Below are positions 2,519 through 49,263 of a DNA stretch of 56,983 bases, piece after piece; within the stretch, counting starts at the first letter, position 1, and each line of letters opens with the position of its first letter. The position numbers were made by a program, and so were the translations under genes. The notes under the pieces were generated by a model that worked only from the letters and a program-made list of their open reading frames with translations, did not search any database and was not told the DNA's origin. Source of the stretch: Candidatus Aenigmatarchaeota archaeon (GTDB taxonomy: Archaea; Aenigmatarchaeota; Aenigmatarchaeia; QMZP01; JAFGSV01); the NCBI GenBank assembly GCA_021163005.1, contig JAGGXP010000018.1:1-56983 (forward strand), written 5' to 3'.

Positions 2519-4079
2519 TTCTTGCGGCATATATCTGCTTATGATAAATCCATGGCTGCTCGTGGGCGGCACCGGCATGATGCTCGCCGCTCTTGTGCCC
2601 GCACTCTGGTGGCGCTACAAAAAGCTCGTTTCGTGGAGATTCTTCGCGGCAGGCGGCCTTGCATGGCTCGCTGCGATAGCTGTGAAGGCTGCGATGGACC
2701 TGTCTGTCACGCCGGTGCTCGTCAGCTGGCTTTCAGGCACCTACACGCTCATGGGCATAGCCATACTGAGCGGCGTCTATGTCGGAACCAGGACCGGGGT
2801 GCTGGAAACACTGTTCTCTTATGTTGCGGCAGTGAAGTCCGGCTTTGGGAAAATCAGCTTTGACGAGGCCGTTGCCTTCGGCATCGGCTTCGGGTGTGCG
2901 GAGGCGTTCCTTCTGGGCATGTCGTCCTTTCTCACTGTCTCTGTTTTCATGGCATTCCCGCAGATAGTGGGCGCTCTGGCTCCCGCGCAGAAAGCCGCTG
3001 TCATGCAGCAGCTGAGCGCGCCCACGTACATGGCGCTGTTCCCCATAGCTGAGAGGATATTCACCATACTGGTTCATGTATTCTGCGGCATACTTGTGGT
3101 AAACTATCTGAGAACCCGCAGGTTCAGGTATTTCATGCTGCCTGTCGCATGGAAGACGCTGCTTGACGGCATGTTGCCGCTCTTGCTGCTGGTCTTTGAT
3201 GTGTCATCACTGGACGGGCTCTTCTATATCGAATTGTTTGTCGCTGTGATGGGACTTTCGAGCGCTGTAGGCATCTTCTGGATTAAGGAGAGATATAATG
3301 AAAAGCCGGAAAAGGGGAGCGGGTATATGAGGACTGCGGCTTCTGTGTCTGTCTTCGTTCTGGTTGTCCTCGTTGTGGCGCTTGTGCTCGCCCAGCCGAA
3401 CGCGGGAACCATGTTCGAAAGGAGACCCGTGGATTTCGACAGCTTCAGCGGCACGTACAGCATCAACATAAACGGGAGCCGCGCGGGCACGAGCATGTTC
3501 GAATACGTGGGACCTGCGAGATACAGGGGCATGGAGACGTTCCTGATTCACGAAACAACAAACTTCTCCTCTCCTGAATACAGCATGGTCATAGAAGGGG
3601 ACCTTTACACAACTGTTGACGGAAGGCCTGTTTTCTACAACTCGACGCTGACGAGGGGCATTGACACGAGGCGTATATCATGCGAATTCGCCGGCGGCAT
3701 GGTGAACGAGACCATTGTCCAGAACAATGCAACCAAGACCTCCATCGTGCCGTACGACGACAACGGCTTCATAATAGCAAACAACATGATATCGCACTGG
3801 GCCCTGCTGTTCAGGTCTGTAAAATTCGGTGAGAAAAACAACTACATAGCTAGGCTTTACAGCCCGGACATGGAGACAGAGGTCACGCGCTCCTTTTCTG
3901 TCGCCGGTGCAGGGATGCTGAGAGTTCAGGGAGAAGTCTATGATGTCTACGTGTTCAGGGAGAGCACAGGGAATACGTATTATGTAACGCCGGAAGGTAT
4001 GCTGCTGAAAATATCAGGGCCGCTTGTGGAGATTATCATAAGCGACGGCCAGCCCGGGGAAGGCGGTATATTCAGGTAG
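2490..4079 (+). CDS. Multi-pass membrane protein with a C-terminal extracytoplasmic domain. The N-terminal part may be YhfC-like.
   Basis: About 7 hydrophobic helices in the first 290 aa, one more TM, then a soluble domain of about 230 aa. The start is uncertain: 2490 overlaps the GGR end and Met at 2541 is an alternative. Confidence 0.5.
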   Translation: MSSSLGTLFNSCGIYLLMINPWLLVGGTGMMLAALVPALWWRYKKLVSWRFFAAGGLAWLAAIAVKAAMDLSVTPVLVSWLSGTYTLMGIAILSGVYVGTRTGVLETLFSYVAAVKSGFGKISFDEAVAFGIGFGCAEAFLLGMSSFLTVSVFMAFPQIVGALAPAQKAAVMQQLSAPTYMALFPIAERIFTILVHVFCGILVVNYLRTRRFRYFMLPVAWKTLLDGMLPLLLLVFDVSSLDGLFYIELFVAVMGLSSAVGIFWIKERYNEKPEKGSGYMRTAASVSVFVLVVLVVALVLAQPNAGTMFERRPVDFDSFSGTYSININGSRAGTSMFEYVGPARYRGMETFLIHETTNFSSPEYSMVIEGDLYTTVDGRPVFYNSTLTRGIDTRRISCEFAGGMVNETIVQNNATKTSIVPYDDNGFIIANNMISHWALLFRSVKFGEKNNYIARLYSPDMETEVTRSFSVAGAGMLRVQGEVYDVYVFRESTGNTYYVTPEGMLLKISGPLVEIIISDGQPGEGGIFR

Positions 4080-8492: not shown

Positions 8493-9074
8493 ATGAGCAC
8501 GAAAAAGGCCGGTCCGGGCTTTAAGATAAAGGTTCAGAACATAGTTGCGTTCACTGTTCTCGGAAAGCCCATTTCCCTTGACGAGATGCTGCAGAAGGTT
8601 GATAACACGGAATGGCAGCCCGAGCAGTTTCCGGGGCTGGTGCTTAAGATAAACAACCCGAGGGCATCGGCTCTCATATTCTCCCAGGGAAAGGTCGTAT
8701 GCACGGGCACGAAGTCCCTCGAAGACCTCGAAAAGGCCATGAAGAAGATTGTCTCCGCCATCAGAAAGGCCGGCATATCCATGCCCAACAAGTACAGCAC
8801 AAAGGTCGAGAACATAGTTGCCTCGACCAAACTCGACGGCGAAATCAGCCTCGAGAACATAGCGCTGAAGCTGGAAAACAGCGAATACGAGCCTGAGCAG
8901 TTTCCGGGGCTGGTGTACAGGATAAGCGAGCCGAGGGTGGCATTCCTGCTCTTCAGGTCCGGCAGGGTGATATGCGCAGGCGCCCAGAATGAGGAAGACA
9001 TACACAGGGCCCTTGAAAGGCTGGTGGAAAACCTCGGGAAAGTCGGCATCAGGGTGAAGCCTGCGGACATCTGA
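8493..9074 (+). CDS. tbp: TATA-box binding protein (canonical)
   Basis: Two repeats, each with the E(P)EQFPGLV and LIFxxGKVVCTG / LLFRSGRVICAG motifs. Confidence 0.95.
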   Translation: MSTKKAGPGFKIKVQNIVAFTVLGKPISLDEMLQKVDNTEWQPEQFPGLVLKINNPRASALIFSQGKVVCTGTKSLEDLEKAMKKIVSAIRKAGISMPNKYSTKVENIVASTKLDGEISLENIALKLENSEYEPEQFPGLVYRISEPRVAFLLFRSGRVICAGAQNEEDIHRALERLVENLGKVGIRVKPADI

Positions 9075-9708: not shown

Positions 9709-12700
9709 ATGAATCCGGATGTTAGGCATTTAATAGAAAAATTTGAAGAAATGCTCACGCTGAACGGGCGCAAAAGGGTTTTTGAGGACGGGCAGAAATT
9801 ATCAACTGATTTCATAAACCAAAAATCCGACCCAGAAGCATTCACGAAAGAATTTCTCATAGAGCCGGTATTCAGAAAATTTAACCTGTCAAAATTAACG
9901 GAAAAGCATTTCAGAGGTATTAAGCAAGATTTGAGAAAAGTTGACTATGTCTTGAAAAACCATAAAGGCGAATCATTTTTAGCTGAAGCAAAGCCTCTCA
10001 ATTCTGATTTATTTGACAAATCATCTGATGGCGCAGTAAATCAGATTAAAGGTTTGTTCAGATTGGCAGAAGTTCAGAGGGATTACGAATTCGGCATAGC
10101 CACAGACGGATTAAAATGGATTTTCATTGACAAAAACTCTAAGGTTGTTTTTCAGTACGACTTGAGAGATGAGTTGGACAAAATAAGAGAAATATTAGTA
10201 GGAAAGGAAGAAGTGTCGTCAGAACGGATTGAAGAAGAAATCAGCAAAAAATTTTATGTATGGTATAACGCACTTCTTCACGGAGGAAAATACAAAGACC
10301 ATGAAAACAAAACCGGAACAATTTCAACCAAAGATTGCTTGGTTGAAAATATTCTTTTTGTTTCAAAGCCCGAAGACAAGAAACAGATAGCACAAACAAT
10401 TATGGACAGGCTCATTTTCATAAAATTCCTGCAATCAAAAGAAATTGTCGGCTATGATATCCTTAAGTATCTATCAAGCTTGGAAGAAAATATCCTGAAC
10501 GAAAAAATGAAACAACTGTTTTTTTCCGTGCTGAATACGAAAGAAAGTGAAAGAGTTGACATTGACCCCAAATTCAAAGGAATTCCGTATCTGAACGGCA
10601 GTCTGTTCGTAAGGACTGATGCAGAAACGAGAAATCCTGATTATAAGATAAGGGCTTTCATACTGAAAAAAGTCATAAAATTCTTGGACTCTTTCAAGTT
10701 CGTTCATACAGAAGACGTGTCCAACAAAAAAATCTTAGACCCTGAGATTCTTGGCTATATCTTTGAAAGGGCCATGACAGCCACGGACAGAAAAGGGACA
10801 GGTGCTTATTACACACCAAAGACCATAACGACCTACATATCAAAAAATACAATTCATCCTGTCATTGTCAAGAAAGTGAACAAACTGCTGAAAGAAAAAG
10901 GTTATAAAGACTCCGAATTGCTTAAAGACATAGAAGAAGTTTACAGGTTAAGGGAATCCACATTAGGAGAGGTTTTCAGCAAAATTATTCTCAATCTGAG
11001 AGTATGCGACAACGCCTGCGGCTCTGGGGCCTTTTTGCTGGCAGCTGCCGATGTATTACTGAAGGTTTACCAGAGAATAAAAGAGGAATTGAGATTAAGA
11101 AATTCTGAAATATCAATGAGAAAACTGATTTTGCAGAATAACCTTTATGGCGTGGATATAAACCCGAACGCCATTGAAATAGCAAAGCTGAGATTATGGC
11201 TGTGGCTTGTAACCGCATACGAGCCTGACAAAGTTGAGCCTTTGCCAAACATAGATTATAACCTACGGGTAGGCAATAGCTTAATCGGTTATGTTGATAT
11301 TAGCAAATTCAAAGATCACAAACTAACACTTTTAGACTGGTATAGTGCTGAAAAATCATTGAATATTCTCCTGAAAAAAAGAGAAGACAAAATCAAAGAA
11401 TATAAAACAGCTGCCGGAGATAAGGCAAGGGAGCTTAAATCAGAAATTGATGATCTTGATAAAAAAATAAAAAAACTGCTTGATATAAATCTGTTCCAAG
11501 AAATTAGCAAGAAAACAAAAATAGACGAGGAAGAATTCAGAAAAATCAACCCGTTCCATTGGGGCTTTGAATTCTATGATATTTTCGATGGCGACGGAGA
11601 GACAGATGAAAAAGGATTTGATGCTATTATAGGAAATCCGCCTTACATAAGAATACAAAATCTTAAATTAGAATCTCCTGCACAAGTAGAGATATTCAAA
11701 AAAATATACAAAACGGCGTCTAAAGGAAATTATGATATTTACGTTTTGTTCGATGAACGATCATTAAAATTAGTAAATGATGTTGGAATATTGGGTTATA
11801 TTCAACCACATAAATTTTTCCAAGCAAATTATGGAGAGGCACTCAGAGGAATTATTTCACGAAATAAATACCTCAGGGAAATTGTAAACTTCATGGATCA
11901 ACAGGTCTTTGTTGGAGCTACAACATATACATGCTTGTTGTTCTTAAGCAAACAGGAACACGAAAACTTTAGGTACGCCCAAATTGATAGAGTAGTTAAT
12001 TTATCTAACCAGCTTGAACAAATTGAACTGAATAAGAAAACAAATATAAAAATCGAGATTATACCTAGCACTTTAGTTTCTAGCTCTCCCTGGTCATTTG
12101 GAGTTGGACAAGAAATATCGATTTTATCTAAACTCAAATCAATTGAAAGCAACCTTGATTCCGTAACTGAAAGGATATTTCAAGGTGTTAGAACAGGAAT
12201 AGATGATATTTTTGTTCTAGATATAAGAAAAATAAAGGGCAAAAAAATATTAGGATTTTCTAAAGCATTGAAGAAAGATGTTGAAGTCGAATTAGGCATT
12301 ACATTTCCATTGGTTAAAGGGGAACAAATGTTAAGGTATTCCATAGATGATGCTAAAAAGAGGATTATTGTGCCATATTATGTAGACGAAAAATATCATT
12401 TAATTAAAGAAAGTGAAATGAAATTAAAGTATCCTCTTTGTTGGGAATATTTGAAAGAAAATAAAGAAATTTTAGAGAAGAGAGAAAGGGGTAAAATTGC
12501 CAAAATTGGTTGGTGGGGGTTTAGTAGAACACAGAATATTGATATAATAAGGAGGCAAAAAATTCTTACTGCTGATTTAGCTAACCATAACTCATTCAGC
12601 CTTGATGAAACTGGTGAAATACATTTCACAAGTGGTTATGGAATAATACCAAAAAAAGACTATCCAATAAAATTACTTTTGACTATTCTGAATAGTAAAT

Positions 12701-12957
12701 TGCTAGAGTGGTATTTACGAAAGATATCAACCACATTTAGAGGAGGTTATTATTCTTGTGAATATAGATTTATCAAAAACTTGCCTATTATAGAAGCAAA
12801 TAAAATTGAGAACAATATTAAGAACAAGCTCATTTCTCTTTGCGAAAAGGCTTTAAATGGCGATAAGAAATCTGAAAGTGAAATAGATATGCTGATTTAC
12901 AGAATCTACGGAATAACTAACGAAGAACAAAAAATCATAGAGGAGAGTTTGAAGTAA
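9709..12957 (+). CDS. Single-chain Type IIG/IIL-like restriction-modification enzyme (N-terminal PD-(D/E)xK nuclease, gamma-class N6-adenine methyltransferase, C-terminal specificity region)
   Basis: VDYVL...LAEAKP (9940-9993) looks like D...ExK. SAM motif I is DNACGSGAF (11008-11031). Catalytic motif IV is GNPPY (11631-11645). A C-terminal region of about 400 aa follows. The gene is AT-rich. Confidence 0.8.
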   Translation: MNPDVRHLIEKFEEMLTLNGRKRVFEDGQKLSTDFINQKSDPEAFTKEFLIEPVFRKFNLSKLTEKHFRGIKQDLRKVDYVLKNHKGESFLAEAKPLNSDLFDKSSDGAVNQIKGLFRLAEVQRDYEFGIATDGLKWIFIDKNSKVVFQYDLRDELDKIREILVGKEEVSSERIEEEISKKFYVWYNALLHGGKYKDHENKTGTISTKDCLVENILFVSKPEDKKQIAQTIMDRLIFIKFLQSKEIVGYDILKYLSSLEENILNEKMKQLFFSVLNTKESERVDIDPKFKGIPYLNGSLFVRTDAETRNPDYKIRAFILKKVIKFLDSFKFVHTEDVSNKKILDPEILGYIFERAMTATDRKGTGAYYTPKTITTYISKNTIHPVIVKKVNKLLKEKGYKDSELLKDIEEVYRLRESTLGEVFSKIILNLRVCDNACGSGAFLLAAADVLLKVYQRIKEELRLRNSEISMRKLILQNNLYGVDINPNAIEIAKLRLWLWLVTAYEPDKVEPLPNIDYNLRVGNSLIGYVDISKFKDHKLTLLDWYSAEKSLNILLKKREDKIKEYKTAAGDKARELKSEIDDLDKKIKKLLDINLFQEISKKTKIDEEEFRKINPFHWGFEFYDIFDGDGETDEKGFDAIIGNPPYIRIQNLKLESPAQVEIFKKIYKTASKGNYDIYVLFDERSLKLVNDVGILGYIQPHKFFQANYGEALRGIISRNKYLREIVNFMDQQVFVGATTYTCLLFLSKQEHENFRYAQIDRVVNLSNQLEQIELNKKTNIKIEIIPSTLVSSSPWSFGVGQEISILSKLKSIESNLDSVTERIFQGVRTGIDDIFVLDIRKIKGKKILGFSKALKKDVEVELGITFPLVKGEQMLRYSIDDAKKRIIVPYYVDEKYHLIKESEMKLKYPLCWEYLKENKEILEKRERGKIAKIGWWGFSRTQNIDIIRRQKILTADLANHNSFSLDETGEIHFTSGYGIIPKKDYPIKLLLTILNSKLLEWYLRKISTTFRGGYYSCEYRFIKNLPIIEANKIENNIKNKLISLCEKALNGDKKSESEIDMLIYRIYGITNEEQKIIEESLK

Positions 12958-12966
12958 GGTGTTCAA

Positions 12967-14121
12967 ATGCCGAGAAAATCTATAAAGATTGACGTGAAGC
13001 CTGATGTTTTCAAATGGCTCAGGGTGAGTGCCGGCTGGAATATTGAGGAAGTAAGCAAAAGAATAAAAACGAGTCCTGAAACTGTGAAAGCCTTTGAAAC
13101 AGGAGATAAAACACCTACTTTTAGGCAGCTGAAAGAATTGTCCCGAAGCTTCAGAAGGCCCGTGGCGGCATTTCTGCTTCCGGAACCCAAGAAGGAAAAG
13201 GGAAAACCGAAGGATTACAGATTCATTCCAGGCAGGAGTGGAATATTTGATAAAAAAACTATACTTGTCTTAAGGGAAGCACGGAGCCTACAGGAAGCAG
13301 GAAAGGATTTATCCAGTAATATTGAATACGAAACTAAGGCGAAAGTTGAAAAGGTTGGGCTTTCAGCTGATCCTGAAAAAATAGCAAAAAAATACAGGGA
13401 AGTCTTCGGATTGACCGAAGAAAAACAAAAAAGATTCAAAAGGACCTATGACTTATTCAATTATCTGAGGGACATCCTTGAGGACATGAATATTCTTGTA
13501 TTTCAGTTTTCTATGCCAGTGGAAGATGCAAGAGGTTTTGTTTTGTCGGATGAATCCCCAGCTGTCATAGTTGTCAACACTATGGATACAATAGAGGCAA
13601 GATTATTTTCTTTGATGCACGAGTTTGCACATATACTGTTGGGGCAATCTGTGATAGATTTTCCAGACATCTCGTCGTCAGTCAGGAACAGCGTTGAAAA
13701 ATGGTGCAATGAGTTTGCAGCATCGGTGCTTCTTCCTAAAGAAATAGCGAGGGTATTATTTGAAGCAAATCGTGGTAATTTGATAGAGAGAACGAGGCTT
13801 AATTATTTGTCGAGAAAATACAAAGTCAGCAAAGCTATGCTTTTATTTAATATGATGAAGATGGGTTATATAACAAAAACTGAATACGAAAACAAACTCA
13901 GCATATATCATCCAAAAGAGGCAGAAGCAAAAAAGAAGGGTGGGAAAGCCGGTGGTGGAATTCCAGCGGATAAGAGGTGCATTTCAAAGGTCGGAACCAA
14001 ATTTGTTTCTCTTGTGGCTAACAATTACGACCATGGTTATATAACCTATACTGACGCCCTGAATTATCTTTCGATAAAATCCAAAAACTTTGACAAAGTG
14101 CTGGCAAAGGCGATGAAATGA
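12967..14121 (+). CDS. XRE-type HTH fused to an ImmA/IrrE-family zinc metallopeptidase
   Basis: N-terminal HTH (WNIEEVSKRIKTSPETVKAFETGDKTPTFRQL). HEFAH zinc motif at 13618-13632. Overlaps the next gene by 4 nt. Confidence 0.8.
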   Translation: MPRKSIKIDVKPDVFKWLRVSAGWNIEEVSKRIKTSPETVKAFETGDKTPTFRQLKELSRSFRRPVAAFLLPEPKKEKGKPKDYRFIPGRSGIFDKKTILVLREARSLQEAGKDLSSNIEYETKAKVEKVGLSADPEKIAKKYREVFGLTEEKQKRFKRTYDLFNYLRDILEDMNILVFQFSMPVEDARGFVLSDESPAVIVVNTMDTIEARLFSLMHEFAHILLGQSVIDFPDISSSVRNSVEKWCNEFAASVLLPKEIARVLFEANRGNLIERTRLNYLSRKYKVSKAMLLFNMMKMGYITKTEYENKLSIYHPKEAEAKKKGGKAGGGIPADKRCISKVGTKFVSLVANNYDHGYITYTDALNYLSIKSKNFDKVLAKAMK

Positions 14122-14612
14122 CTTCTAATTATTATGTTATTGATACATCATCATTGGTTGGGTTGAATAGACACAATCCAATTGACGTTTTTCCCGGTTT
14201 ATGGAAGAAACTGGAAGGATTGGTTAATAAAGAAAGGTTGGTTGCACCGCGAGAAGTGATGTATGAAATCCTTCAAAATGATGATCATCTATCCAAATGG
14301 GTAAAAAAACAGAAAAGGATGTTCAAAGATCCTACTCCAAGACAAATAGAACTTGTGAAAGAAATAGTAAGCAGATATCCCTCTTTGATAAATCTTGACA
14401 ACAAATACAGTGCAGACCCTTGGGTCATAGCATTGGCAAAAGAATTGGCGACAAATCCACAGACAACGGTATTTTATATAAAAAGAATTGTTGTATCAGA
14501 AGAGAAGCTGAGAGGAAATAAAATTAAAATCCCCCTAGTATGCAACAATTATCAAATAGAAAATATGGATATAGTAACGATGTTTAGAACTGAGGGTTGG
14601 AAGTTTGAATAA
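14118..14612 (+). CDS. DUF4411 PIN-like nuclease-fold protein
   Basis: YVIDTSSLV at the N-terminus, ...PREVMYEI..., SADPWVIALAKE. This is the typical DUF4411 pattern and the typical partner of ImmA/IrrE-HTH proteins. Confidence 0.7.
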   Translation: MTSNYYVIDTSSLVGLNRHNPIDVFPGLWKKLEGLVNKERLVAPREVMYEILQNDDHLSKWVKKQKRMFKDPTPRQIELVKEIVSRYPSLINLDNKYSADPWVIALAKELATNPQTTVFYIKRIVVSEEKLRGNKIKIPLVCNNYQIENMDIVTMFRTEGWKFE

Positions 14613-15011: not shown

Positions 15012-17753
15012 TTACCTGTACCTCAGGATGCCTGCGAGGCCGCCCATTTCGTAAAGCTGCTCGCCCTCGTGCGTATCGACCGAGACTATTTCGAGTTTCG
15101 TGCCCACGTTTTCCGCGAACTTGTCGAGGACCTCTATGCCGTCGGTTTCTTTTTCCACTTCCACGCTTCCGCCGCAGTCGCATTTCAGCTCTCTGATTTT
15201 GTCCTTTTTGACCATCTTCCTGATTTTCTTCCCGCAGGCGCTGCACTTCCCTTCGACTTCCACCAAGTCGAAGTCCTCGGAAACCAGCAGTATCTCAACA
15301 GAGCCGCTTTCGAGCGCCTTCAGCGTCTCATGTATGCCATATACAGCGAGGCCGTTGTCCTTTGAGAGTTCTGAGAAGAAGCGTTCCAGAAGCTTCCTCT
15401 CCCTTGTCACGGACGCCTCTGCCAGTATGTCCTCGGCTCTTGCAATCATCTCCTCGAGCCCCGGAACGCCTGTATAGGACGTGTCGATGACGCCTATTAC
15501 CTTTGACTTTATGTCAGTCGGGATGTGGTCGCTGTTGAAGAACATGTCCTTTATCGGCCCCGGGCCGCCTATGAGTATGCCTTTCATGTCCTTGGTCTCG
15601 CGGAAATATGAGGTAGCTATCTCCGCCGTCTTCTTGAGGTGGTCGTTCAGCAGTCCTTCCCTGACGCGCGCATAACGGGCCTGTGAATTGTGGACTATGA
15701 TGCCGTTCGCCATGAAGTTCCTGTATTTTGGCACTTCCATGTCGTAGAACTTCCCGTCAGGCCTGACCTTCTCTATCGACTTTATCCTTGCTGATATGAG
15801 CCCGGATTCAGCCATCGAGCGGAGGGACGAGAGAGCGGCGGCTGCCTTGGGAGAACTGCCGAGCTTCTTTTCTATGGTTTTCATGATGTTCCTGTGGAAA
15901 ACCGGATAGCTCATTCCCTTCCTGTCGAAAAAGAAATCCTGGACCTTCGGGAAATCATCAGTCGTGAGGCCCAGCTCGTGTATGAGTCTGAGCACGTGGC
16001 TTCCGAGGAACGGTATCTGGTCCGTGTAGGTGTTTCTGGAAGCTGTCTTCGTTATCTCTGAAAGGACTCCGGCCTTCTTCGCGGAAAGCAGTGGTATATG
16101 CTTTGAAAACCTCAGGAGGGACTCTCCGTCTGTTATGACGAGGGCGTATCTCATGTGCCGGGCGAAGCTTCCCCTCGCCGGCACGGCCTTCATAGAACTG
16201 ATGATGCCGAACCTCAGGAGGAGGAGCTGCAGCTTTGCTATTATATGGCGCTCCTTCATCGTTATCCCTGCCGAGCCGTTGCTTTTGGTTGCATAGCCTT
16301 CTGCATCCCATATGCCGCCTACGAAATGGGCTACAACGTCCGGCGGGGACATGGTTATGGACTCCGGTATGTCCCTCTCGCTGTTTTTGAATACCTCCGG
16401 GAAGCTCTTGCGCAGCATGTCGCACAGGTGCCTTGAATGGAGCCTTGTTTCATGGTAGTTTCTGCCGCCCCTCTTCCTGGGAGAAGCCCTGACACCGAAG
16501 AGCTTTTCGGAAATCCGGGAGTACTCCTCAGCGAGAGCGCGGTCTCCTTCGTTCAGCGTCAGCCGGTTTTTCTCTATGCCACCGTCGCCGATGAAATACC
16601 CAATGAATCTCGCCGCATCCCTTGTCAGCATATTTGGCCATTTTATCGCCGGAGCAGCATTTGCTACTCTGCTCATGGCGGAACGGGGGAGAGCATACGC
16701 GCCGAGAATCCTCTCGAGCAAATCGGAACCCGGTTCCCTTTCGCCCCTCTCGAACTTGGATATGAATGTCTGGGAAACGCCTGCCTTCTCCGCAACCTGC
16801 CTCTGCGTGAGCCCGAGGGACCTCCTCTTTCCCGCGAGAAATTTCCTGCCCTGCTCCGTGACCCTGTGAATCACGGGCGCTTCCGCTTCTATGCTCTGCA
16901 TGCTGCCACTGAAATCAAGCGACCTGAGGCAGAGCAGCCTCTCGCCTGCTGAAAGCTCGCCGGCAGCCTTCGTGCCGAACCCGTCGGGTGTGGGAACGAA
17001 GAATTTGTGCTCAGGTGTCACTGTTATGCTCATGGACGGGGCCTTGGTCGAGATTCTCAGCGCTTCATTGCTTTTTCTGACAAAATAATGGGCATGCCTG
17101 GCGGCGGCACGTGTCATCCTGCTGAAATCATATGAGACGAATTTCTCGCTGCCTATCTCGCTTACCTTTTTTATCCTTCCGTCCGAAAGCTGCATAAAAC
17201 TGTCTTCATGGACGCACCACCCGCCTTTCTTCGTCTTTCCGGGAACAAGGGACTCTATGTGCTTCAGCGACTCTATGCGCTTTCCCGCAAGAAGCCCTAT
17301 CTCAGAGTCAGACTTGTCGAGCACTATGAGGCCGTATATCTCCTTCTCCCTGACCATGTGCTTCAGCGGGTCGAGGACGAACGTCTGGTCGCACCTGTAA
17401 AGCCGCTGGTTGAGCTTCTCCGGCGGCTCTATTGCCCAGAGCTCTATGTCGCTGTCCCCTTCCTTTTCGGAAACGTTGCCGCAGAATATGGCGAGCCCGT
17501 TCGGCGGGGTAGACCTGTAAAGCTTGAGGTGCTGGGCGACCTTTTCGAGCGCCCCGAGCACATTCTTCCTGACCGTCTTCGACTTTATGTTAGCCGCTGT
17601 CCCCTGCTCCTGCGTAACCTGAGTGCCGACTATGTTGAGGTTGGCGCCTGCCGGCACGTATATGGTTATGAGCTCCGTATGCCTGCCGCGTATGGAGCCG
17701 AGCTTCTTTATCAGCCCCTTGAGCCTCTTCTGGGCTATGGTTTCCATGGCCAT
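15012..17753 (-). CDS. prf1: Peptide chain release factor aRF1, interrupted by an intein
   Basis: NIKS (TAANIKS) and YxCxxxF (YRCDQTF) are present. ...[10 protein letters not shown]|C...intein...HN|[10 protein letters not shown] aligns with GGQ|S of e/aRF1. The C-terminal domain has a CxxC...CxC zinc ribbon. The first ATG is at 17753; the track starts at GTG 17762. Confidence 0.9.
15687..17216 (-). mobile_element. Intein (510 aa) with a LAGLIDADG homing-endonuclease domain and an embedded XRE-type HTH
   Basis: Starts with CVHEDSF (Cys codon 17214-17216). Block B is TPEH. LAGLIDADG motifs are GYFIGDGG and GGIWDAEGY. The HTH is [24 protein letters not shown]. It ends with IIVHN (Asn codon 15687-15689) followed by Ser. 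Confidence 0.85.
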
Positions 17754-17808
17754 GTCAATCACGTGCTTAAAATTGAGACTGCGAATTTAAATGAGTCCGC
17801 AGAAATCG

Positions 17809-20007
17809 TCAGGCTTCTTCCTCTTCTTCCGGCTCGTCTTTTATGCCCTTGCGTTCCTTGATTTTCCTGATGACGTCGTTTTCCAGCTCCTTCGGGAGCG
17901 GCTCGTAGATGACATCTATCAGCCAGAAGAATCCCTGCCCGCCTGTGCCGGACTTGAGCGCGGAGTTGAAGCCGAACATCTCGGCGACCGGCAGCTTGGC
18001 CTTTATTACGGTCGTGCCTCTCTCTTCGTTCATCTCTATTATCTGGCCGCGCCTGTTCTGCACTTCCTTCATGGCGCCGCTCAGCTGGTCGCTCGGAACG
18101 TCTATCCTTATCATCTGCTTGGGCTCGAGTATGTAGGCCTTTGCCCCTACCATTGCCTTTCTGATGGCTGACCGCACAGCAGGTATGACCTGCGCCGGCC
18201 CCCTGTGTATGGCATCCTCGTGAAGCTTGGCGTCAACAATCATCACCTTTACGCCGCTAACGGGTTCCCTGGCAAGCGGTCCCTGGTCCATGGACTCTAT
18301 GAAAGCCTGCTTGAGCATCTCCATGACCTCCAGTATGGCGTTGACGCCGCGGGTGTTGTCTATGAACATGTTCCTGTTGTGTATGAGCTTGACCTTCTTT
18401 ATCTCGTCCCTGTCCATGCCGAGGGCAACAAGCTTGTCGATGAGCTCGAGGTCCTTCTTCTTTATCTCGAAGTCCGAAGGTATGTCCCCTGCCTTCATGG
18501 CAGCTATGACATTCTCGTTGAGTGGCTCGGCGATCATGTAGAACCTGTTGTGCCTGTTGGGCGACTTGCCCTCAATGGGCTCCGGCGTCCGTGTTTTGAT
18601 TGTCTCCTTGTAGATGACTATGGGCGGCGAAACGCTGACATCGAGCCCTGAATCTTTCAGAGGCCTCTCTATTTTTGCATCTATGTGGAGCTCCCCGAGT
18701 CCGGAAACGAGGTATTCGCCTGTATCCTCATTTATCTTGACCTTGAGCGTCGGGTCCTCCCTGCTGGTCTTTCTGAGGAATTCTATGAGCTTCGCGAGCT
18801 GCTTCGGCTGCTTCGGCTCTATGGCCTTTGTCACGACAGGCTCGAATATGTGCTTTATGCTCTCAAATGCAGGTATAGCGTAATCGGGCTCGGCAAGCGT
18901 CTCTCCGGAATAGGCGCTCTTGAGCCCGACGATGCCGACGATATTGCCTGCGACGACCTCGTCCATGGCTATCCTCTGGGCGCCCTTGTAAATGGAAACC
19001 TGCTGTATCTTTTCCTTCTTCTGGGAGCCGACGAGCAGCAGCTCCTGCCCGCTCCTTATCTTTCCTGAAAGTATCCTTACCGTGGCGACATAGCCTGCGT
19101 GCGGGTCAGGGTAAATCTTCGTGACTATGGCCGCTAGGTGGCCGTTCGGGTCGCAGTTCCTCATGCTCTCGGCCACAGGGCTCTCCTTCTCGCCGGGCCA
19201 TATCCTCTCTATCCTGTATTTCTGCGCGTCGAGCGGGTTTGGAAGGTGATTTATGGTCATGTCAAGCACTACCGCGTGGAGAGGTGTTTTCTCCGCGAGC
19301 TCCTTCTCCTGCCCGTTGTTCGTCATGTCTATTATGTCCTTGAAGCTTATGCCTGTTTCCTTCATTTTCGGTATGGATATTGCCCAGTTCCTGAGGGCGG
19401 AGCCGAAGGCAACGCTGCCGTCCAGCACATTGACAGTGTATTTTTCGCCGTATTCCTTCTCGGCGTATTTTTGTATGAGCATATTCACGTTGGTTATTAT
19501 CTTCTTGAAGCGCTCTTCCATCTGCTGCGGCGTGAGCTTGAGCTCCTTTATCATCCTGTCGACCTTATTGATGAAAAGAACGGGCTTGACCCTCTCCTTG
19601 AGAGCCTGCCTGAGAACAGTCTCGGTCTGTGGCATGACACCCTCGACCGCATCAGCCACGACGACTGCGCCGTCCACGGCACGCATAGCACGTGTGACAT
19701 CACCGCCGAAATCCACATGGCCCGGTGTGTCTATGAGGTTGATGAGATACTCCTGGCCGCCAACGGTGTGAACCATGCTGACATTGGCTGCGAAAATCGT
19801 GATGCCCCTCTCCTGCTCCTGGTCGACCGTGTCCATGAACAGCTGCGTACCTGCAAGGTCCTGGGATATCATGCCCGCGCCCGCGAGAAGATTGTCGGAA
19901 AGTGTGGTCTTCCCGTGGTCTATGTGAGCGACTATGCCTATGTTCCTTATGTGCTCCGGCTTTCGCATGAGCTCCTTGACGGTCTCTGTAAGATTGGCCT
20001 TTGCCAT
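17809..20007 (-). CDS. fusA: Elongation factor 2 (aEF-2)
   Basis: IRNIGIVAHIDHGKTTLSD, DTPGHVDF, and the HEDAIHRGPAQ diphthamide loop. ATG at 20007 lies 9 nt after the S7 stop. Confidence 0.95.
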   Translation of the reverse strand: MAKANLTETVKELMRKPEHIRNIGIVAHIDHGKTTLSDNLLAGAGMISQDLAGTQLFMDTVDQEQERGITIFAANVSMVHTVGGQEYLINLIDTPGHVDFGGDVTRAMRAVDGAVVVADAVEGVMPQTETVLRQALKERVKPVLFINKVDRMIKELKLTPQQMEERFKKIITNVNMLIQKYAEKEYGEKYTVNVLDGSVAFGSALRNWAISIPKMKETGISFKDIIDMTNNGQEKELAEKTPLHAVVLDMTINHLPNPLDAQKYRIERIWPGEKESPVAESMRNCDPNGHLAAIVTKIYPDPHAGYVATVRILSGKIRSGQELLLVGSQKKEKIQQVSIYKGAQRIAMDEVVAGNIVGIVGLKSAYSGETLAEPDYAIPAFESIKHIFEPVVTKAIEPKQPKQLAKLIEFLRKTSREDPTLKVKINEDTGEYLVSGLGELHIDAKIERPLKDSGLDVSVSPPIVIYKETIKTRTPEPIEGKSPNRHNRFYMIAEPLNENVIAAMKAGDIPSDFEIKKKDLELIDKLVALGMDRDEIKKVKLIHNRNMFIDNTRGVNAILEVMEMLKQAFIESMDQGPLAREPVSGVKVMIVDAKLHEDAIHRGPAQVIPAVRSAIRKAMVGAKAYILEPKQMIRIDVPSDQLSGAMKEVQNRRGQIIEMNEERGTTVIKAKLPVAEMFGFNSALKSGTGGQGFFWLIDVIYEPLPKELENDVIRKIKERKGIKDEPEEEEEA

Positions 20008-20015
20008 GAGAATCA

Positions 20016-20603
20016 CTACCTTGCTCCCTCTGCTTCCTTCTCTATCCTCGTCCTTTCCCTTATAGCCAGTGTCTTGGAATCATTGGAAGCTGCTGAAAGA
20101 AGCTCGCTGGCTATCACTTCACCAAGGCTCTTGTTCTTCTTGAACGAGCTGCTGTAGATGCCCTGTGTTAACAGCCTGAGCGCGAGGTCCACCCTTCTCT
20201 GCGGGGATGTTATCACGGCCTTTCGGGCGATTATGCCGCCGAGCTGGTAAGCTGTTATTTCCTCGTAAAGGGCGGCATTCTCTATAGCCTTCACGAGCGT
20301 CTGTACGGGGTTCTTCTTCGTCTTCTTCTCGATTATCTCGAACGCCTTTATGGTCTCGCTCATTATGGTCTGGTAATTGCCCGGGAACATTCCCGATGTG
20401 ACCTTGTGCCTCTTGCCCCTGTGCCCCGTGACCATGAGCTTGTTCATGAACCTCTCGACTATGTTCATCTGGTTCTTCCTGAAGTCGCCGCTTCTCCTGC
20501 CGAACGTCCTCGGCACGACTATGGGCTTCAGGTTTATGTACTTCATCAGGCCGGGATCTTCGACCGTTACTTCAGACATGTTCCACTTACCGAACAAAAG
20601 CAT
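20016..20603 (-). CDS. rps7: 30S ribosomal protein S7 (uS7)
   Basis: The translation matches the archaeal uS7 pattern (KWNMSEVTVEDPGL..., NIVERFMNKLM...), and the gene sits in S12-S7-EF2 order. Confidence 0.95.
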   Translation of the reverse strand: MLLFGKWNMSEVTVEDPGLMKYINLKPIVVPRTFGRRSGDFRKNQMNIVERFMNKLMVTGHRGKRHKVTSGMFPGNYQTIMSETIKAFEIIEKKTKKNPVQTLVKAIENAALYEEITAYQLGGIIARKAVITSPQRRVDLALRLLTQGIYSSSFKKNKSLGEVIASELLSAASNDSKTLAIRERTRIEKEAEGAR

Positions 20604-24890: not shown

Positions 24891-24954
24891 ACAGGGCCGC
24901 ATTCTGTGCGGTTCTATGGAAGATAATCAAAGATGGAATTTAGGAGGAGATAAA

Positions 24955-26226
24955 ATGGCAGAAAAGCCGCATTTGAACATAATAACAGAAGGTCACGTAG
25001 ACCACGGAAAGTCGACATTGTTAGGCAGGCTTCTATTCGATTCCGGTTCACTTCCGGAGCAGGAACTGAGGAAACTCAAGGACCTTGCGAAGGAACTGAA
25101 GAAGGAAACATTCGAGTTTGCTTTCGTGATGGACAAGCTCAAGGAGGAGAGAGAAAGGGGAGTCACCATAGACCTCATGTACAAGCCCATCATAACAGAC
25201 AAATACTACTACACAGCAATCGACTGCCCGGGCCACAGGGATTTCGTCAAGAACATGATAACCGGCGCAAGCCAGGCAGACGCGGCAATCCTTGTTGTTT
25301 CATGCAAGGACGGCGTGCAGGAGCAGACAAAAGAACACCTGTACCTTTCAAAGGTCCTTGGAATCAACCAGATGATTGTGGCAGTCAACAAGATGGACGA
25401 AGTCAACTACGACCAGGGCAAGTTCAACGAGGTCAAGGAACAGGTCACCAAACTTCTCACCTCAATAGGCTACAAGGTTGACCAGATACCGTTTGTTCCG
25501 GTTTCTGCATACGTTGGAGACAACGTGGTAAAGAAATCGACGAACATGCCATGGTATTCGGGTGAGCCTCTTCTGAAAATCATGGACAGCACGATACAGG
25601 TTCCTGAAAAGCCCATAAACAAGCCGCTCAGGCTTCCTGTTCAGGACGTCTACTCAATCACCGGCGTGGGGCTCGTTCCCGTCGGCAGGGTAGAGACAGG
25701 CGTTCTCAAGGCAGGCCAGAAGATTGTCATAGAACCTTCGGGCACAGTTGCCGAAGTGAAGTCCATGGAAATGCACCACAAGCCTCTTGAGAAGGCAGAG
25801 CCTGGCGACAACATAGGTTTCAACCTCAAGGGCGTGTCCAAGAAAGACGTCAGGAAAGGCGATGTCGTCGGCGATCCCGCAAACCCACCGACAGTAGCAA
25901 AGGAGTTCACGGCACAGATAATCGTGCTTCAGCACCCGACTGTCATAACCAAGGGTTACACACCTGTTTTCCACATCCACACAGCGCACGTTGCAGGCAG
26001 AATCACTGAAATAGTGAAGAAGCTTGATCCGAAGACGGGCGCAGAGATAACGGAAAACAAGGAGACGCTGAAGACGGGCGACGCAGCAGTCGTGAAGGTC
26101 CAGCCGCTCCAGCCCGTGGCAATAGAGAAGCAGGCCGATTTCCCTGAACTCGCGAAGTTCGCCATCAGGGACATGGGCAAGACAGTGGCCGCAGGCATAT
26201 GCACCGACGTCGTAAAGGCAAAGTAG
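24955..26226 (+). CDS. tuf: Elongation factor 1-alpha (aEF-1alpha)
   Basis: [22 protein letters not shown], and C-terminal [12 protein letters not shown]. The start is set at the ATG preceded by GGAGG. Confidence 0.95.
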
Positions 26227-37708: not shown

Positions 37709-38272
37709 TCAATCCTCCACGAAGTCCGCCTTTATGCCGGCGCCGTCAAGCTTGTTTTTGAGCTCCCTGACAGCGGCCTGTATGTTCTTTATGCTGTCAG
37801 AGCCTGTGCATATTATCTTTCCTTCCGGGAGTATCAGAAAGTCAGCATTGTGCTCTTCGTCCATGTAGACAACACCCTCTATGCCGCCTGAAGCCTTTTC
37901 TGCTCCCTCAAGTGCCTGAGAAACGGCATCAAGGTCGAACGGTTTGTCCATCCTGAAAGCAGCCACTATCCTCTCGATGTCTATCTCAGGTTCGCTGTCG
38001 ATGGAGACACCCACACTTCTCAGCTTTTCGAGAACAACGCCTATGGCTTTTCTGGCGTCCTGTATGCTCTTAGGGCCTGTGCAGACTATCCTTCCCGAGG
38101 GGAATATGAGTGCTGTGGCCTTCGGCTCCCTTACCCTGTAAACGACACCCTGCGACTCCTCGCTCTCGTATTCGGTGTTTTCTTCTGAGGTCACGAGCTT
38201 CTCGATGGGAATTGCTGTCATGAGATTGGCGACAGCTGTCACATCCTCTATCCTGACCGGAAGAACGCCCAT
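37709..38272 (-). CDS. Divergent TBP-like protein (second TBP paralog)
   Basis: Two TBP repeats are recognisable (ALIFPSGRIVCTGPKS and FLILPEGKIICTGSDS). The EQFPGL motifs are replaced by EESQGV and GGIEGV. Confidence 0.7.
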   Translation of the reverse strand: MGVLPVRIEDVTAVANLMTAIPIEKLVTSEENTEYESEESQGVVYRVREPKATALIFPSGRIVCTGPKSIQDARKAIGVVLEKLRSVGVSIDSEPEIDIERIVAAFRMDKPFDLDAVSQALEGAEKASGGIEGVVYMDEEHNADFLILPEGKIICTGSDSIKNIQAAVRELKNKLDGAGIKADFVED

Positions 38273-46851: not shown

Positions 46852-47442
46852 CTATTCGTGCTCCCAGCCGAAGAGTTCTACAAGGAAGATGGCAATCGGG
46901 AAGAATGCCACAAGCAGTATGAATGCCAGGATGGCTATTATTATGTTAGCCGTCGGCAGGTTCGAGCCCACGAGGAATGCTATGCCGATGTAAACCGCTA
47001 TGCTGAACGCGAACACGAGCGTCGCCAAAAGGTTTGCTGTCACGGCAAGGATGCCCGTCAGAGACAGGAGGGCCGTGAGGATTATTATCACAAGGACTAT
47101 AAGGAACATGACCCATGCCTCCATGCCCGTGATAAGGAAGAACGCAATCACAACAAGCGCGATTACCAGCGCCATGGATACGGGATTCGAAAGCAGAGAT
47201 ACTGCCGATGAACTCCCGGCGCTAATAAAAACCTTTCCGGACAGAGCGAAAAACAGTAGAAAAATGAGGATTATCATGCCCGTGCTTCCGGCCGGTATAA
47301 GCTCTGCGAATGGATATCCCTTCAGCGCCGCGAAGATTACCCATATGAGCGACAGGAATATCAGAATCACAAGCGCCACGATGACGAGATGCCACTTGCT
47401 TCCATGAAAGGTCTCGTCGTATGTCTTCCACGAATGGGTCAT
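46852..47442 (-). CDS. Polytopic membrane protein, unknown function, antisense insert between L3 and L4
   Basis: 6-7 hydrophobic helices. No recognisable motif. Confidence 0.5.
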   Translation of the reverse strand: MTHSWKTYDETFHGSKWHLVIVALVILIFLSLIWVIFAALKGYPFAELIPAGSTGMIILIFLLFFALSGKVFISAGSSSAVSLLSNPVSMALVIALVVIAFFLITGMEAWVMFLIVLVIIILTALLSLTGILAVTANLLATLVFAFSIAVYIGIAFLVGSNLPTANIIIAILAFILLVAFFPIAIFLVELFGWEHE

Positions 47443-47494
47443 AATAAATAATTGGACAGACAGATTAAAAAGCGCTCAGTTTTAATTTCTTGCT

Positions 47495-48379
47495 GTGAAA
47501 ATATCCTCAGGTGGTTTTTTGCCGGAGGCCTACAAACCTGACAAAAGCACAATGGACATCGTCTTCTTCTTTTCAGGAGGCGCGAGCAGCATGCACGCGG
47601 TTCTCGAAAGCCCGGAGCACGGCAGGATTTACAGGGTCGCGGGAGCCGTTACCAACAGGCCGGAAAGGGAGGCTGCCCGTGGATGGGATACTGCAAGGCA
47701 GCACGGCATAGAGCCGCTGTATGTCAGTCCCGGGAAGTTCAGCACAAGAGAGGATTTCTATTCATATGTTGCGGACGCTGTAGACGAAATGAGGCCGGAT
47801 GTCATAGGCCTTTCCGGGTTCCTCAGGAAGTATTCCATCATATCCGAGCCGTTCCTCGGCAGGTACAGGAACAGGATATTCAACGTCCATCCCGCGGATC
47901 TCGCCATCGTGTATTACCCGGAACGCAGGAAGCCCATAGAACTGGGGAGGGACGGCATAGAAAAGACGAAAAAGCACCTTGGGAAAATGGAATGGAGGCA
48001 TGCAAGGAGGTTTATTGACTCTGGTTTCGAGAGGCTTTACAGCGGGGACGATGCCGTCACGATGGCCGTGCTTTTCGGCGAGAACGAGCTCCGTTCGACC
48101 GTGCATGTTGTTGAGGAAAAGGTGGACGGAGGGAAGATACTTGTCAGGTCGCAGCCAAAGGAAGTCGACGCAGCGTATGTTGAAAGGATGCTTTCGAGGA
48201 ATGCATACAGCAGGATAGCGCATTATGCGTCATGCCTGCAGGATGAAATGAAGCGCGACTGCGACGGCCCTGCTTTCATAAAGAGCCTTGAACTAAAGGC
48301 AGCTGGCCGGCTGGATATCAAAGACAATTTCGTCACGCTCGACGGCGAGCCGCTTCCATACGGCGGATACCTGATGTAA
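47495..48379 (+). CDS. Formyltransferase-fold protein, PurN (GAR transformylase)-like with an internal insertion
   Basis: NVHPADL (N/H of the PurN NxHPSLLP motif), VHVVEEKVDGGKIL, and C-terminal LDGEPLPYGGY resembling the PurN C-terminus. The start is uncertain: GTG 47495 or ATG 47552. Confidence 0.6.
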   Translation: MKISSGGFLPEAYKPDKSTMDIVFFFSGGASSMHAVLESPEHGRIYRVAGAVTNRPEREAARGWDTARQHGIEPLYVSPGKFSTREDFYSYVADAVDEMRPDVIGLSGFLRKYSIISEPFLGRYRNRIFNVHPADLAIVYYPERRKPIELGRDGIEKTKKHLGKMEWRHARRFIDSGFERLYSGDDAVTMAVLFGENELRSTVHVVEEKVDGGKILVRSQPKEVDAAYVERMLSRNAYSRIAHYASCLQDEMKRDCDGPAFIKSLELKAAGRLDIKDNFVTLDGEPLPYGGYLM

Positions 48380-48441
48380 ATGCGCCAATTCTCAAAAAGC
48401 TTTTAAATATCAATGCCACGATATAATTTCAAGTGATTTCA

Positions 48442-49239
48442 ATGAAAGCGCCGGTTTATGACATCAGCGGAGCGAAAAAGGGCGAAATGACGCTCGGGAA
48501 GGCATTCTCGAGTCCAGTCAGGAGCGACGTGATAAAGAAGGCAGTGCTGGCCGAGCAGGCCGCACAGAGGCAGCCATACGGCTCTGACCCACTCGCCGGA
48601 CAGAGAACATCGGCCGACTACAGAGGAAGGCGTGGCATCAGGGGCAGCATGATGAACCGCGAGATGTCCAGGATGAAAAGGATAACAGGCGGGGGCTTCC
48701 TTCGCTGGAGGGCGAGGGCAATAGCAGGCGTCGTGAAGGGGCGCAGGGCCCACCCGCCCAAGACAGAGAAGAACTGGGAGCTCAAGATAAACAAGAAGGA
48801 AAGGATTCTTGCTCTCCTTTCCGCGGTTTCTGCGACACGGAAGAAGGAACTCGTAGAACAGCGGGGACACAGAATAGAGGGAGTCAAGCACATCCCGCTC
48901 ATAGTAGATGACAAGCTTCAGGAACTTAAGAAAAACAAGGATGTTTACAGCCTGCTGAAGGCACTAGGACTTGGGAAGGAGCTGGAGCGCTGCTCTGAAA
49001 CCAAGACGAGGTCCGGCATCGGCAAGTTCAGGGGCAGGAGAAAAATAAAGAAAAAGGGCCCGCTAATAGTTGTTGCAGAGGACAAGGGAATATCAAAGGC
49101 AGCCGGCAACATCCCCGGCGTCGAGGTTGCAACCCCGTCAACACTCAGGGTGAGCATGCTTGCACCGGGAACTGCACCGGGAAGGCTCACACTATGGACA
49201 AAGTCCGCTGCAGAGGCAGTGGAGAAGCTCGCAGCTTAA
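48442..49239 (+). CDS. rpl4: 50S ribosomal protein L4 (uL4)
   Basis: MKAPVYDISG..., QPYGSDPLAGQRTSA..., GRRG. Confidence 0.9.
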   Translation: MKAPVYDISGAKKGEMTLGKAFSSPVRSDVIKKAVLAEQAAQRQPYGSDPLAGQRTSADYRGRRGIRGSMMNREMSRMKRITGGGFLRWRARAIAGVVKGRRAHPPKTEKNWELKINKKERILALLSAVSATRKKELVEQRGHRIEGVKHIPLIVDDKLQELKKNKDVYSLLKALGLGKELERCSETKTRSGIGKFRGRRKIKKKGPLIVVAEDKGISKAAGNIPGVEVATPSTLRVSMLAPGTAPGRLTLWTKSAAEAVEKLAA

Positions 49240-49263
49240 ATTTCTTTCTGTTAAAATCATTTT

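Follow-up and report, generated by a model that had tools for sequence, protein, structure and literature searches.

To our knowledge, the Gly-Gly-Gln (GGQ) tripeptide is conserved in every class-I release factor, in all three domains of life. Two unrelated folds acquired it by convergence, and dedicated enzymes methylate it. For the canonical archaeal and eukaryotic factors (aRF1 and eRF1), the Gln has been described as universally conserved and N5-methylated (PMC2613156, PMC6144793). Its side chain 'assumes a packing role' that is strengthened by methylation (PMC5799190). Pelota is without the NIKS and YxCxxxF motifs and has a truncated GGQ arm (PMC2613156), and VLRF1-type release factors (aVLRF1, acVLRF1) of the same superfamily carry GGxSQ as their loop motif (PMC6514570). 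Here, we analyze the aRF1 gene on contig JAGGXP010000018.1 of a Candidatus Aenigmatarchaeota archaeon (NCBI GenBank assembly GCA_021163005.1). The stretch comprises positions 1 to 56,983 of the forward strand, and this whole 56,983-nucleotide sequence is referred to as the window. The catalytic tripeptide of its aRF1 reads Gly-Gly-Trp (GGW) and is directly followed by an intein. We found that the GGW motif is real, clade-wide and independent of the intein, and that the genes carrying it are orthologous to GGQ genes. Taken as a whole, we consider it likely that the aRF1 orthologue of a large Aenigmatarchaeota (DPANN) clade natively carries GGW in its catalytic loop, and that this protein is a working omnipotent factor.

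Encoding and distribution of the GGW motif

On the minus strand, positions 17225 to 17205 read GGC GGG TGG TGC GTC CAT GAA and encode G180 G181 W182 C183 V184 H185 E186. This confirms the Trp codon at 17217-17219 within GGC GGG TGG TGC that had been noted in the original prediction, which was made from the letters of this stretch without database searches. Standard splicing of an intein running from C183 to N692, with C183 and S693 (the +1 residue) as nucleophiles, would yield a 406-residue factor carrying GGW-S, and the claim that the mature protein carries this sequence is thus upheld for ordinary splicing. When the predicted spliced product was searched against the PDB with phmmer, it matched the Halobacterium aRF1 4af1 end-to-end (E 1e-77). 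In the alignment, W182 sits gaplessly opposite the Q of GGQ in the 4af1 segment slvpgkqrkggqsaqrfarlr. The NIKS, YxCxxxF and C-terminal GILRY motifs are intact, in line with the earlier view that the gene is not a decayed pseudogene.

To place the motif among its relatives, the spliced protein was compared with 5.8 billion proteins and the best 120 matches were examined (homologues are given below by P numbers, loci by L numbers). These homologues show 56-78% identity, have lengths of 400-410 residues and are mostly proteins from metagenome-assembled genomes (MAGs) labelled Aenigmarchaeota or Aenigmatarchaeota. GGW was present in 116 of the 120. Of these 116 proteins, 114 are without an intein and two (P0054 and P0103) carry a mini-intein at the same place, while the remaining four of the 120 are three GGQ sequences and one fragment without the region. 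The initial framing of GGW as an intein-junction phenomenon does not hold, since more than 110 intein-free orthologues encode GGW directly in their DNA. Orthologues with and without the intein read GGW alike, so there is no intein dependence.

TGG was found in all 10 independent intein-free loci checked, while the preceding two Gly codons vary between GGA, GGC, GGG and GGT. An invariant TGG amid synonymous Gly-codon change points to selection on the Trp and not to error. The same TGG and GGW recur in independent loci and homologues, and the earlier assessment that sequencing error is not the cause therefore stands. Reassignment of the TGG codon was also considered and rejected: in the neighbouring aEF-2, the two Trp residues checked are encoded by TGG and lie opposite Trp in the P. 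horikoshii aEF-2 (structure 5h7j), that is, at conserved positions TGG is read as Trp.

A wider sample was obtained by a HMMER search with P0001 over 1.84 billion cluster representatives. Among 283 aRF1 sequences, the third residue of the tripeptide was W in 128 including the window protein (7 with an intein; 120 are database sequences free of inteins) and Q in 135, of which 44 have an intein at this same position. Other third residues were M (6), F (4), E (2), A (1) and S (1), and six sequences were fragments. In a neighbour-joining tree of 202 near-full-length aRF1 sequences, built with the motif columns masked, the window aRF1 falls into one clade of 125 tips, made up of 120 W sequences, three Q sequences (P0052, P0090 and P0110) and two fragments. 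The sister group of this GGW clade consists of 12 GGQ tips (the P0126/P0270 cluster) with the NCBI label Aenigmarchaeota, and in other parts of the tree W, F, M, A and E turn up singly or in small groups. Among the best 80 aRF1 loci from a scan of GTDB species genomes, a sample and not a census, those of seven MAGs that are Aenigmatarchaeota or unclassified (L009-L015) read GGW. Further Aenigmatarchaeota, at 45-50% identity, have GGQ, while L024 and L066, from two unclassified archaea, have GGM and a Nanoarchaeia MAG (L059, 535-kb contig) has GGF.

As a separate observation, aRF1 sequences with F, M, E, A or S in place of the GGQ Gln (P0144/P0282, P0124, P0128, P0223, P0247, P0261 and P0215) mostly continue with SQ. 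The E-type variants lie among haloarchaeal- or methanogen-looking sequences and may be paralogues.

Orthology, copy number and predicted function

The gene order S12-S7-aEF2-aRF1(GGW)-PAP2-TBP is common to the window and to the closed 742,425-bp genome CP070804.1 (aRF1 UCD03260.1). Upstream of the GGW genes P0047 and P0048 and of the nested GGQ gene P0052, a divergently transcribed gene for a KaiC-like ATPase was found in all three cases, and a convergent Nop5 gene lies downstream of both the GGW gene P0047 and the GGQ gene P0052. These shared neighbours indicate that GGQ and GGW are alternative states of one locus in sister lineages. The GGW and GGQ genes are orthologues, not paralogues. A phmmer comparison of the spliced protein with all six-frame open reading frames (ORFs) of the window returned only the gene itself, with no other ORF of the eRF1 family in the window, and no assembly with two aRF1 loci was seen among the best 80 loci from GTDB genomes, which include seven GGW genomes. 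We infer that the GGW aRF1 is the only copy in the genome.

Decoding-motif residues N55, I56, K57, Y119, C121 and F125 are invariant in a 20-sequence alignment (A1), and the C-terminal GILRY motif, the presumptive interface for the class-II factor or aEF1alpha, is present in the window aRF1. Within the window, ORFs end in TGA (25), TAA (22) and TAG (10) at a coding density of 0.90 under the standard code. The use of all three stop codons means that an omnipotent release factor is needed. Because three stops are used and both Gly residues, the decoding motifs and the C-terminus for aEF1alpha binding are intact, the GGW aRF1 would be the organism's working omnipotent class-I release factor. Stop-codon reassignment in the lineage was considered as well; there was no sign of it in the window, where all three stops end ORFs at the coding density given above.

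The residues following the Trp are SQAR in 86 cases, SANR in 22, SQQR in 16 and SASR in two. Gln at position +2 from the Trp was found in 103 of 128 W-types versus 19 of 135 Q-types, counts which are not phylogenetically independent; 4/4 F-types, 4/5 M-types and the only A-type have it too. Ala occupies this position in the three GGQ sequences that fall within the GGW clade. The distance from GG to R[YF] is unchanged, and the replacement residues W, F and M are all hydrophobic. For a structural view, an AlphaFold model of the intein-free orthologue P0003 was used (75% identical to the window aRF1, pLDDT 86). In this model, the +2 residue is the first of the long post-loop helix (H181-208) and does not lie at the loop tip.

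The methyltransferase Mtq2 is reported to occur in all archaea (PMC6144793). In the GGQ sister clade, aRF1 shares its contigs (33866 and 34904 bp) with a HemK2/MTQ2-type gene that lies ca. 7 kb upstream, the pair being placed at 3183-3785 and 10001-11200 on L004, with the same arrangement in L005. The catalytic motif of the methyltransferase reads NTPY, the usual form being NPPY. Mtq2 was searched for with a single sequence and then with a clade-tuned profile, and the best 120 of 4270 profile matches (at least 235 bits) were placed on contigs by their bp value, the shared 33866- and 34904-bp contigs serving as positive control. Among these best 120 of 4270 matches, as among the best 120 of the single-sequence search, no Mtq2 was found on GGW-clade contigs, including two closed genomes, and the profile list runs from GGQ-clade proteins straight to Methanobacteria. 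Large GGW-clade contigs without a listed match include those of 742425, 1051577, 664793, 464277, 420166, 348528, 323075 and 297114 bp, among others. This suggests that the GGW clade, whose factor offers no Gln for methylation at this position, may have lost Mtq2. An Mtq2-like protein, P0377, was examined as a candidate for the contig of the GGW aRF1 P0004 (longest contig 16198 bp for both) and rejected, as the P0377 contig is without an aRF1.

Proposed mechanism and alternative explanations

In the reading we prefer, the intein would be an independent homing element which landed in a gene already reading GGW. Hydrolysis by the spliced factor would rely on how the Gly-Gly backbone is shaped and on the third residue's main-chain NH, a hydrophobic third residue could pack without methylation, and the Gln two residues on (GGxSQ) may supply the amide. 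A more far-reaching version holds that a whole DPANN clade ends every protein with a Trp-for-Gln release factor and smaller lineages with Phe or Met variants, that Mtq2 was discarded, and that Trp packs like N5-methyl-Gln, perhaps helped by the +2 Gln; for this combination, we see the balance as even. Several points weigh against a native, working GGW factor or parts of its proposed mechanism. GGQ is treated as invariant and its Gln as methylated in all domains (PMC2613156, PMC6144793). Three GGQ sequences nest in the GGW clade of the neighbour-joining tree, which implies either reversion via an Arg or stop codon or repeated Q-to-W change. Further, 24 of 128 GGW proteins are without Gln at +2 (22 SANR, 2 SASR), so that a relocated Gln cannot be essential. 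The copy-number check spans the window and the best 80 loci, CP070804.1 not among them, and may have missed a second GGQ-bearing aRF1 elsewhere in a genome. A divergent Mtq2 would escape an approach based on the best 120 of 4270 matches and contig matching.

The GGW protein might instead be a non-hydrolysing stop-codon-binding paralogue, Pelota-like or regulatory, with a separate GGQ aRF1 releasing the peptide. Some archaea carry aRF1 paralogues, and GGQ aRF1s are present in MAGs labelled Aenigmarchaeota. GGQ is also held to be indispensable and universal in e/aRF1 (PMC2613156). However, the GGQ and GGW genes are positional orthologues, and the GGW gene occupies the S12-S7-aEF2-aRF1 position both in the window and in the closed 742-kb genome, while its protein keeps NIKS, YxCxxxF and GILRY at 56-78% identity across the clade. 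The GGQ sequences of Aenigmatarchaeota form a separate sister clade from different assemblies, with no assembly represented twice among the best 80 loci, and none of the three nested GGQ genes lies on a contig of the same size as one with a GGW gene (DPANN genomes being ca. 0.7-1 Mb). We therefore regard a paralogue of this kind as improbable. Both suggestions made at the outset in this direction, a second intein-free aRF1 and a Pelota-like non-hydrolysing role, are disfavoured by the shared locus, the conserved gene cluster and the absence of a second copy in the window and among the best 80 loci. A different possibility is that the catalytic Gln has moved, with the +2 Gln (Q694) taking the role of the GGQ Gln in a VLRF1-like GGxSQ register and the Trp acting as a spacer or anchor. 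Enrichment of the +2 Gln in W-types and its presence in almost every F, M or A variant, placed separately as these are, would fit such a shift, as would the either/or pattern created by Ala at +2 in the nested GGQ sequences. The same is true for the GGxSQ motif of aVLRF1/acVLRF1 in the same fold superfamily (PMC6514570), together with the unchanged length from GG to R[YF]. Since GGWSANR (22) and GGWSASR (2) proteins do without this Gln, and the +2 residue in the P0003 model starts a helix away from the loop tip, we consider the relocation possible but doubtful.

Trp directly precedes the intein Cys, and it had been proposed that the -1 residue was selected for splicing efficiency at the cost of release or that unconventional junction chemistry restores GGQ. 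Direct coding of GGW in more than 110 intein-free orthologues rules out both, with 114 of the 120 nearest homologues showing an uninterrupted GGN GGN TGG TCN/AGY. In addition, 44 related inteins inserted at this site are preceded by Q at -1, and others by M, F or S. An alternative splice boundary recreating GGQ via Q694 was likewise rejected: no such boundary gives GGQ without deleting two residues compared with every homologue, and intein-free genes encode GGW. We thus see practically no chance that the Trp was selected for the intein or is removed by non-standard splicing. The idea of a sequencing or assembly error or of a decaying pseudogene is equally hard to credit. The rarity of the motif, and nothing else, speaks for it, while more than 120 independent assemblies (NCBI, JGI, ENA, Logan) share this TGG and the 916-codon ORF, the other motifs and both splice junctions are intact. 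A native GGW loop in a working aRF1 remains the reading we favour.

Features of the aRF1 gene and its intein

The coordinates of the precursor gene, its parts and selected neighbours are collected in Table 1.

Table 1. Features of the aRF1 locus (positions in the window).
Feature	Position	Strand	Details
aRF1 precursor ORF, 916 aa	15012..17762	-	GTG start, TAA stop; N-extein + intein + C-extein
N-extein, aa 1-182, last residues GGW	17217..17762	-	Pfam eRF1_1 at residues 17-137
GTAAN-NIKS decoding motif (NIKS = aa 58-61)	17580-17603	-	in N-extein
YRCDQTF decoding motif (aa 122-128)	17379-17399	-	YxCxxxF type, in N-extein
GGC GGG TGG = Gly-Gly-Trp	17217..17225	-	site of catalytic GGQ tripeptide
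Class-1 intein, 510 aa, C183...H691-N692	15687..17216	-	block A CVHEDS, block G IVHN, +1 Ser (S693)
Intein block B TPEH (aa 249-252)	17007-17018	-	
XRE-type HTH_3 inside intein (residues 312-358)	16689..16829	-	Pfam E 3e-12
LAGLIDADG homing-endonuclease module	16095..16607	-	Pfam LAGLIDADG_3 E 2e-21, two stretches
LAGLIDADG motif with acidic residues (aa 386-395)	16578-16607	-	first of two
LAGLIDADG motif with acidic residues (aa 480-489)	16296-16325	-	second of two
C-extein, aa 693-916, begins S693-Q694	15015..15686	-	rest of eRF1_2, eRF1_3, C-terminal GILRYR
Q694 codon	15681-15683	-	Gln at +2 from W
CxxC...CxC four-Cys insertion	15174-15245	-	in eRF1_3 of C-extein
aEF-2	17809..20016	-	directly upstream of aRF1; part of conserved S12-S7-aEF2-aRF1 order
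Ribosomal protein S7	20016..20603	-	
aEF-1alpha	24916..26226	+	Pfam GTP_EFTU, D2, D3, eEF1A_C; context only

Pfam analysis of the 916-residue ORF gave eRF1_1, a split eRF1_2 and eRF1_3, all above cut-off, together with Intein_splicing, HTH_3 and LAGLIDADG_3. In domain 3, four Cys residues are invariant in alignment A1 (C327, C330, C348 and C351 in P0003 numbering), and the insertion that carries them probably forms a zinc ribbon; a similar stretch is seen in the haloarchaeal aRF1 4af1. PMC3467058 describes aEF-1alpha, whose gene is also found in the window, as the GTPase that brings aRF1 to the archaeal ribosome.

The intein sits exactly after the W of GGW, and Intein_splicing covers residues 192-692 (E 1e-16). 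The HTH_3 domain is placed between the N-terminal splicing region and the LAGLIDADG endonuclease and presumably is an extra DNA-binding module. Because its motifs are intact and the host gene is essential, the intein looks competent for splicing and homing. In a BLASTP comparison with 58 inteins that occupy this position in other aRF1s, it was homologous over its full length to same-site inteins, with 42% identity to the P0121 intein (GGW host) and 28-33% to inteins with Q at -1, and it was also homologous to those in hosts with S, M or F at -1. Judged by these alignments, a single intein family is inserted directly behind the tripeptide's third residue in archaea at large, and the -1 residue follows the host. 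The nearest relatives of the window aRF1 (78% identity) are without an intein, a patchy presence as expected for a homing element. Two sequences in the wider sample, P0221 (1187 residues) and P0234 (1452 residues), are too long for one intein and match in three HMMER stretches; several inteins, each at a site of its own, are probably present in them.

Other features of the window

A low-GC island at 9709-14612 (+) has a GC content of 0.35 compared with 0.50-0.55 in its flanks. It holds an Eco57I/MmeI-like type IIG restriction-modification enzyme (1082 residues), an HTH_3 + Peptidase_M78 (IrrE/ImmA-like) protein of 384 residues and a DUF4411 protein of 164 residues. As the island lies between PAP2 and aRF1, which are adjacent in CP070804.1, it resembles a defence or mobile island that was inserted here. 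Two TATA-binding-protein paralogues are encoded within 30 kb, at 8493-9074 (+) and 37709-38272 (-), with Pfam TBP matches of E 1e-56 and 6e-35. The ribosomal-protein run L3 ... L4 ... L23-L2-S19-L22-S3 (window 46852-50295) is broken three times: by a 196-residue ORF on the opposite strand without a Pfam match (46852-47442), by a Formyl_trans_N protein (47495-48379) and, between L4 and L23, by a 343-residue ORF without a Pfam match (49264-50295). No Rfam or tRNA matches were found in the window, hence no rRNA active site is visible there.

Implications

If our reading is correct, the GGW clade represents a natural genome-scale case in which peptide release in vivo does not require the Gln side chain, and compensating changes in the 23S rRNA active site might accompany GGW. 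Together with its GGF and GGM neighbours, the clade would serve as a natural experiment on the in vivo contribution of the Gln side chain and its methylation, bearing on its substitution by a hydrophobic residue or a register-shifted Gln and on co-evolution of the ribosomal active site. The GGW aRF1 is further relevant to annotation and translation models in DPANN archaea and offers engineers a natural variant loop. For the intein field, it shows one family that tolerates Q, W, M, F and S at -1 of the same insertion site. In the literature covered, we found neither reports of GGW release factors or aRF1 inteins, of which an earlier mention may exist beyond it, nor data on Trp at the position of the GGQ Gln.

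Comparison with known systems

By fold, motifs, synteny and phylogeny, the window protein is an aRF1 which fails one defining feature, the Gln of GGQ. A Foldseek search with the P0003 model gave E values from 2e-42 (4af1) to 1e-28 for aRF1/eRF1, with a TM score of 0.82 to eRF1 5lzt, and of ca. 1e-16 for Pelota. Like the canonical aRF1/eRF1 proteins (4af1, 3agk, 1dt9), it has three domains, NIKS, YxCxxxF, GILRY, the same spacing to the R[YF]xR helix and a gene position next to aEF-2, whereas the third residue of its tripeptide is Trp, usually with a Gln two residues on. Pelota/Dom34 shares the eRF1 M and C domains with the window protein and likewise does without the GGQ glutamine. In contrast to Pelota/Dom34, the window protein keeps NIKS, YxCxxxF and a full-length loop that aligns gaplessly to aRF1.

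The sequence GGWSQ fits the GGxSQ motif of VLRF1/Vms1-type factors, with which the protein also shares the M-domain fold (Burroughs and Aravind 2019, PMC6514570). Weak matches to Pfam acVLRF1 (30 bits) and baeRF_family10 were seen on the M domain, the acVLRF1 match lying under that of eRF1_2. Unlike VLRF1, however, the window protein combines an N domain for stop-codon decoding (eRF1_1) with a C domain of the aEF1alpha-binding type, and its identity to GGQ aRF1s is 56-60%; it is not a VLRF1 family member by descent or architecture.

Engineered Gln mutants of RF1, RF2 and eRF1 have the same position replaced, and residual activity is reported for them in published work (PMC5799190). To go by the title of a study by Seit-Nebi from 2000, cited in PMC2613156, mutating this Gln in human eRF1 reportedly does not abolish activity. 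Those are laboratory changes, whereas the GGW aRF1 carries a substitution fixed in a natural clade. Finally, the intein agrees with those known at the GGQ/S site of archaeal aRF1s in its insertion point, Ser at +1, C[VIL]HED block, LAGLIDADG module and full-length identity of 28-42%, and differs from them in that its host provides Trp at -1 and not Gln.

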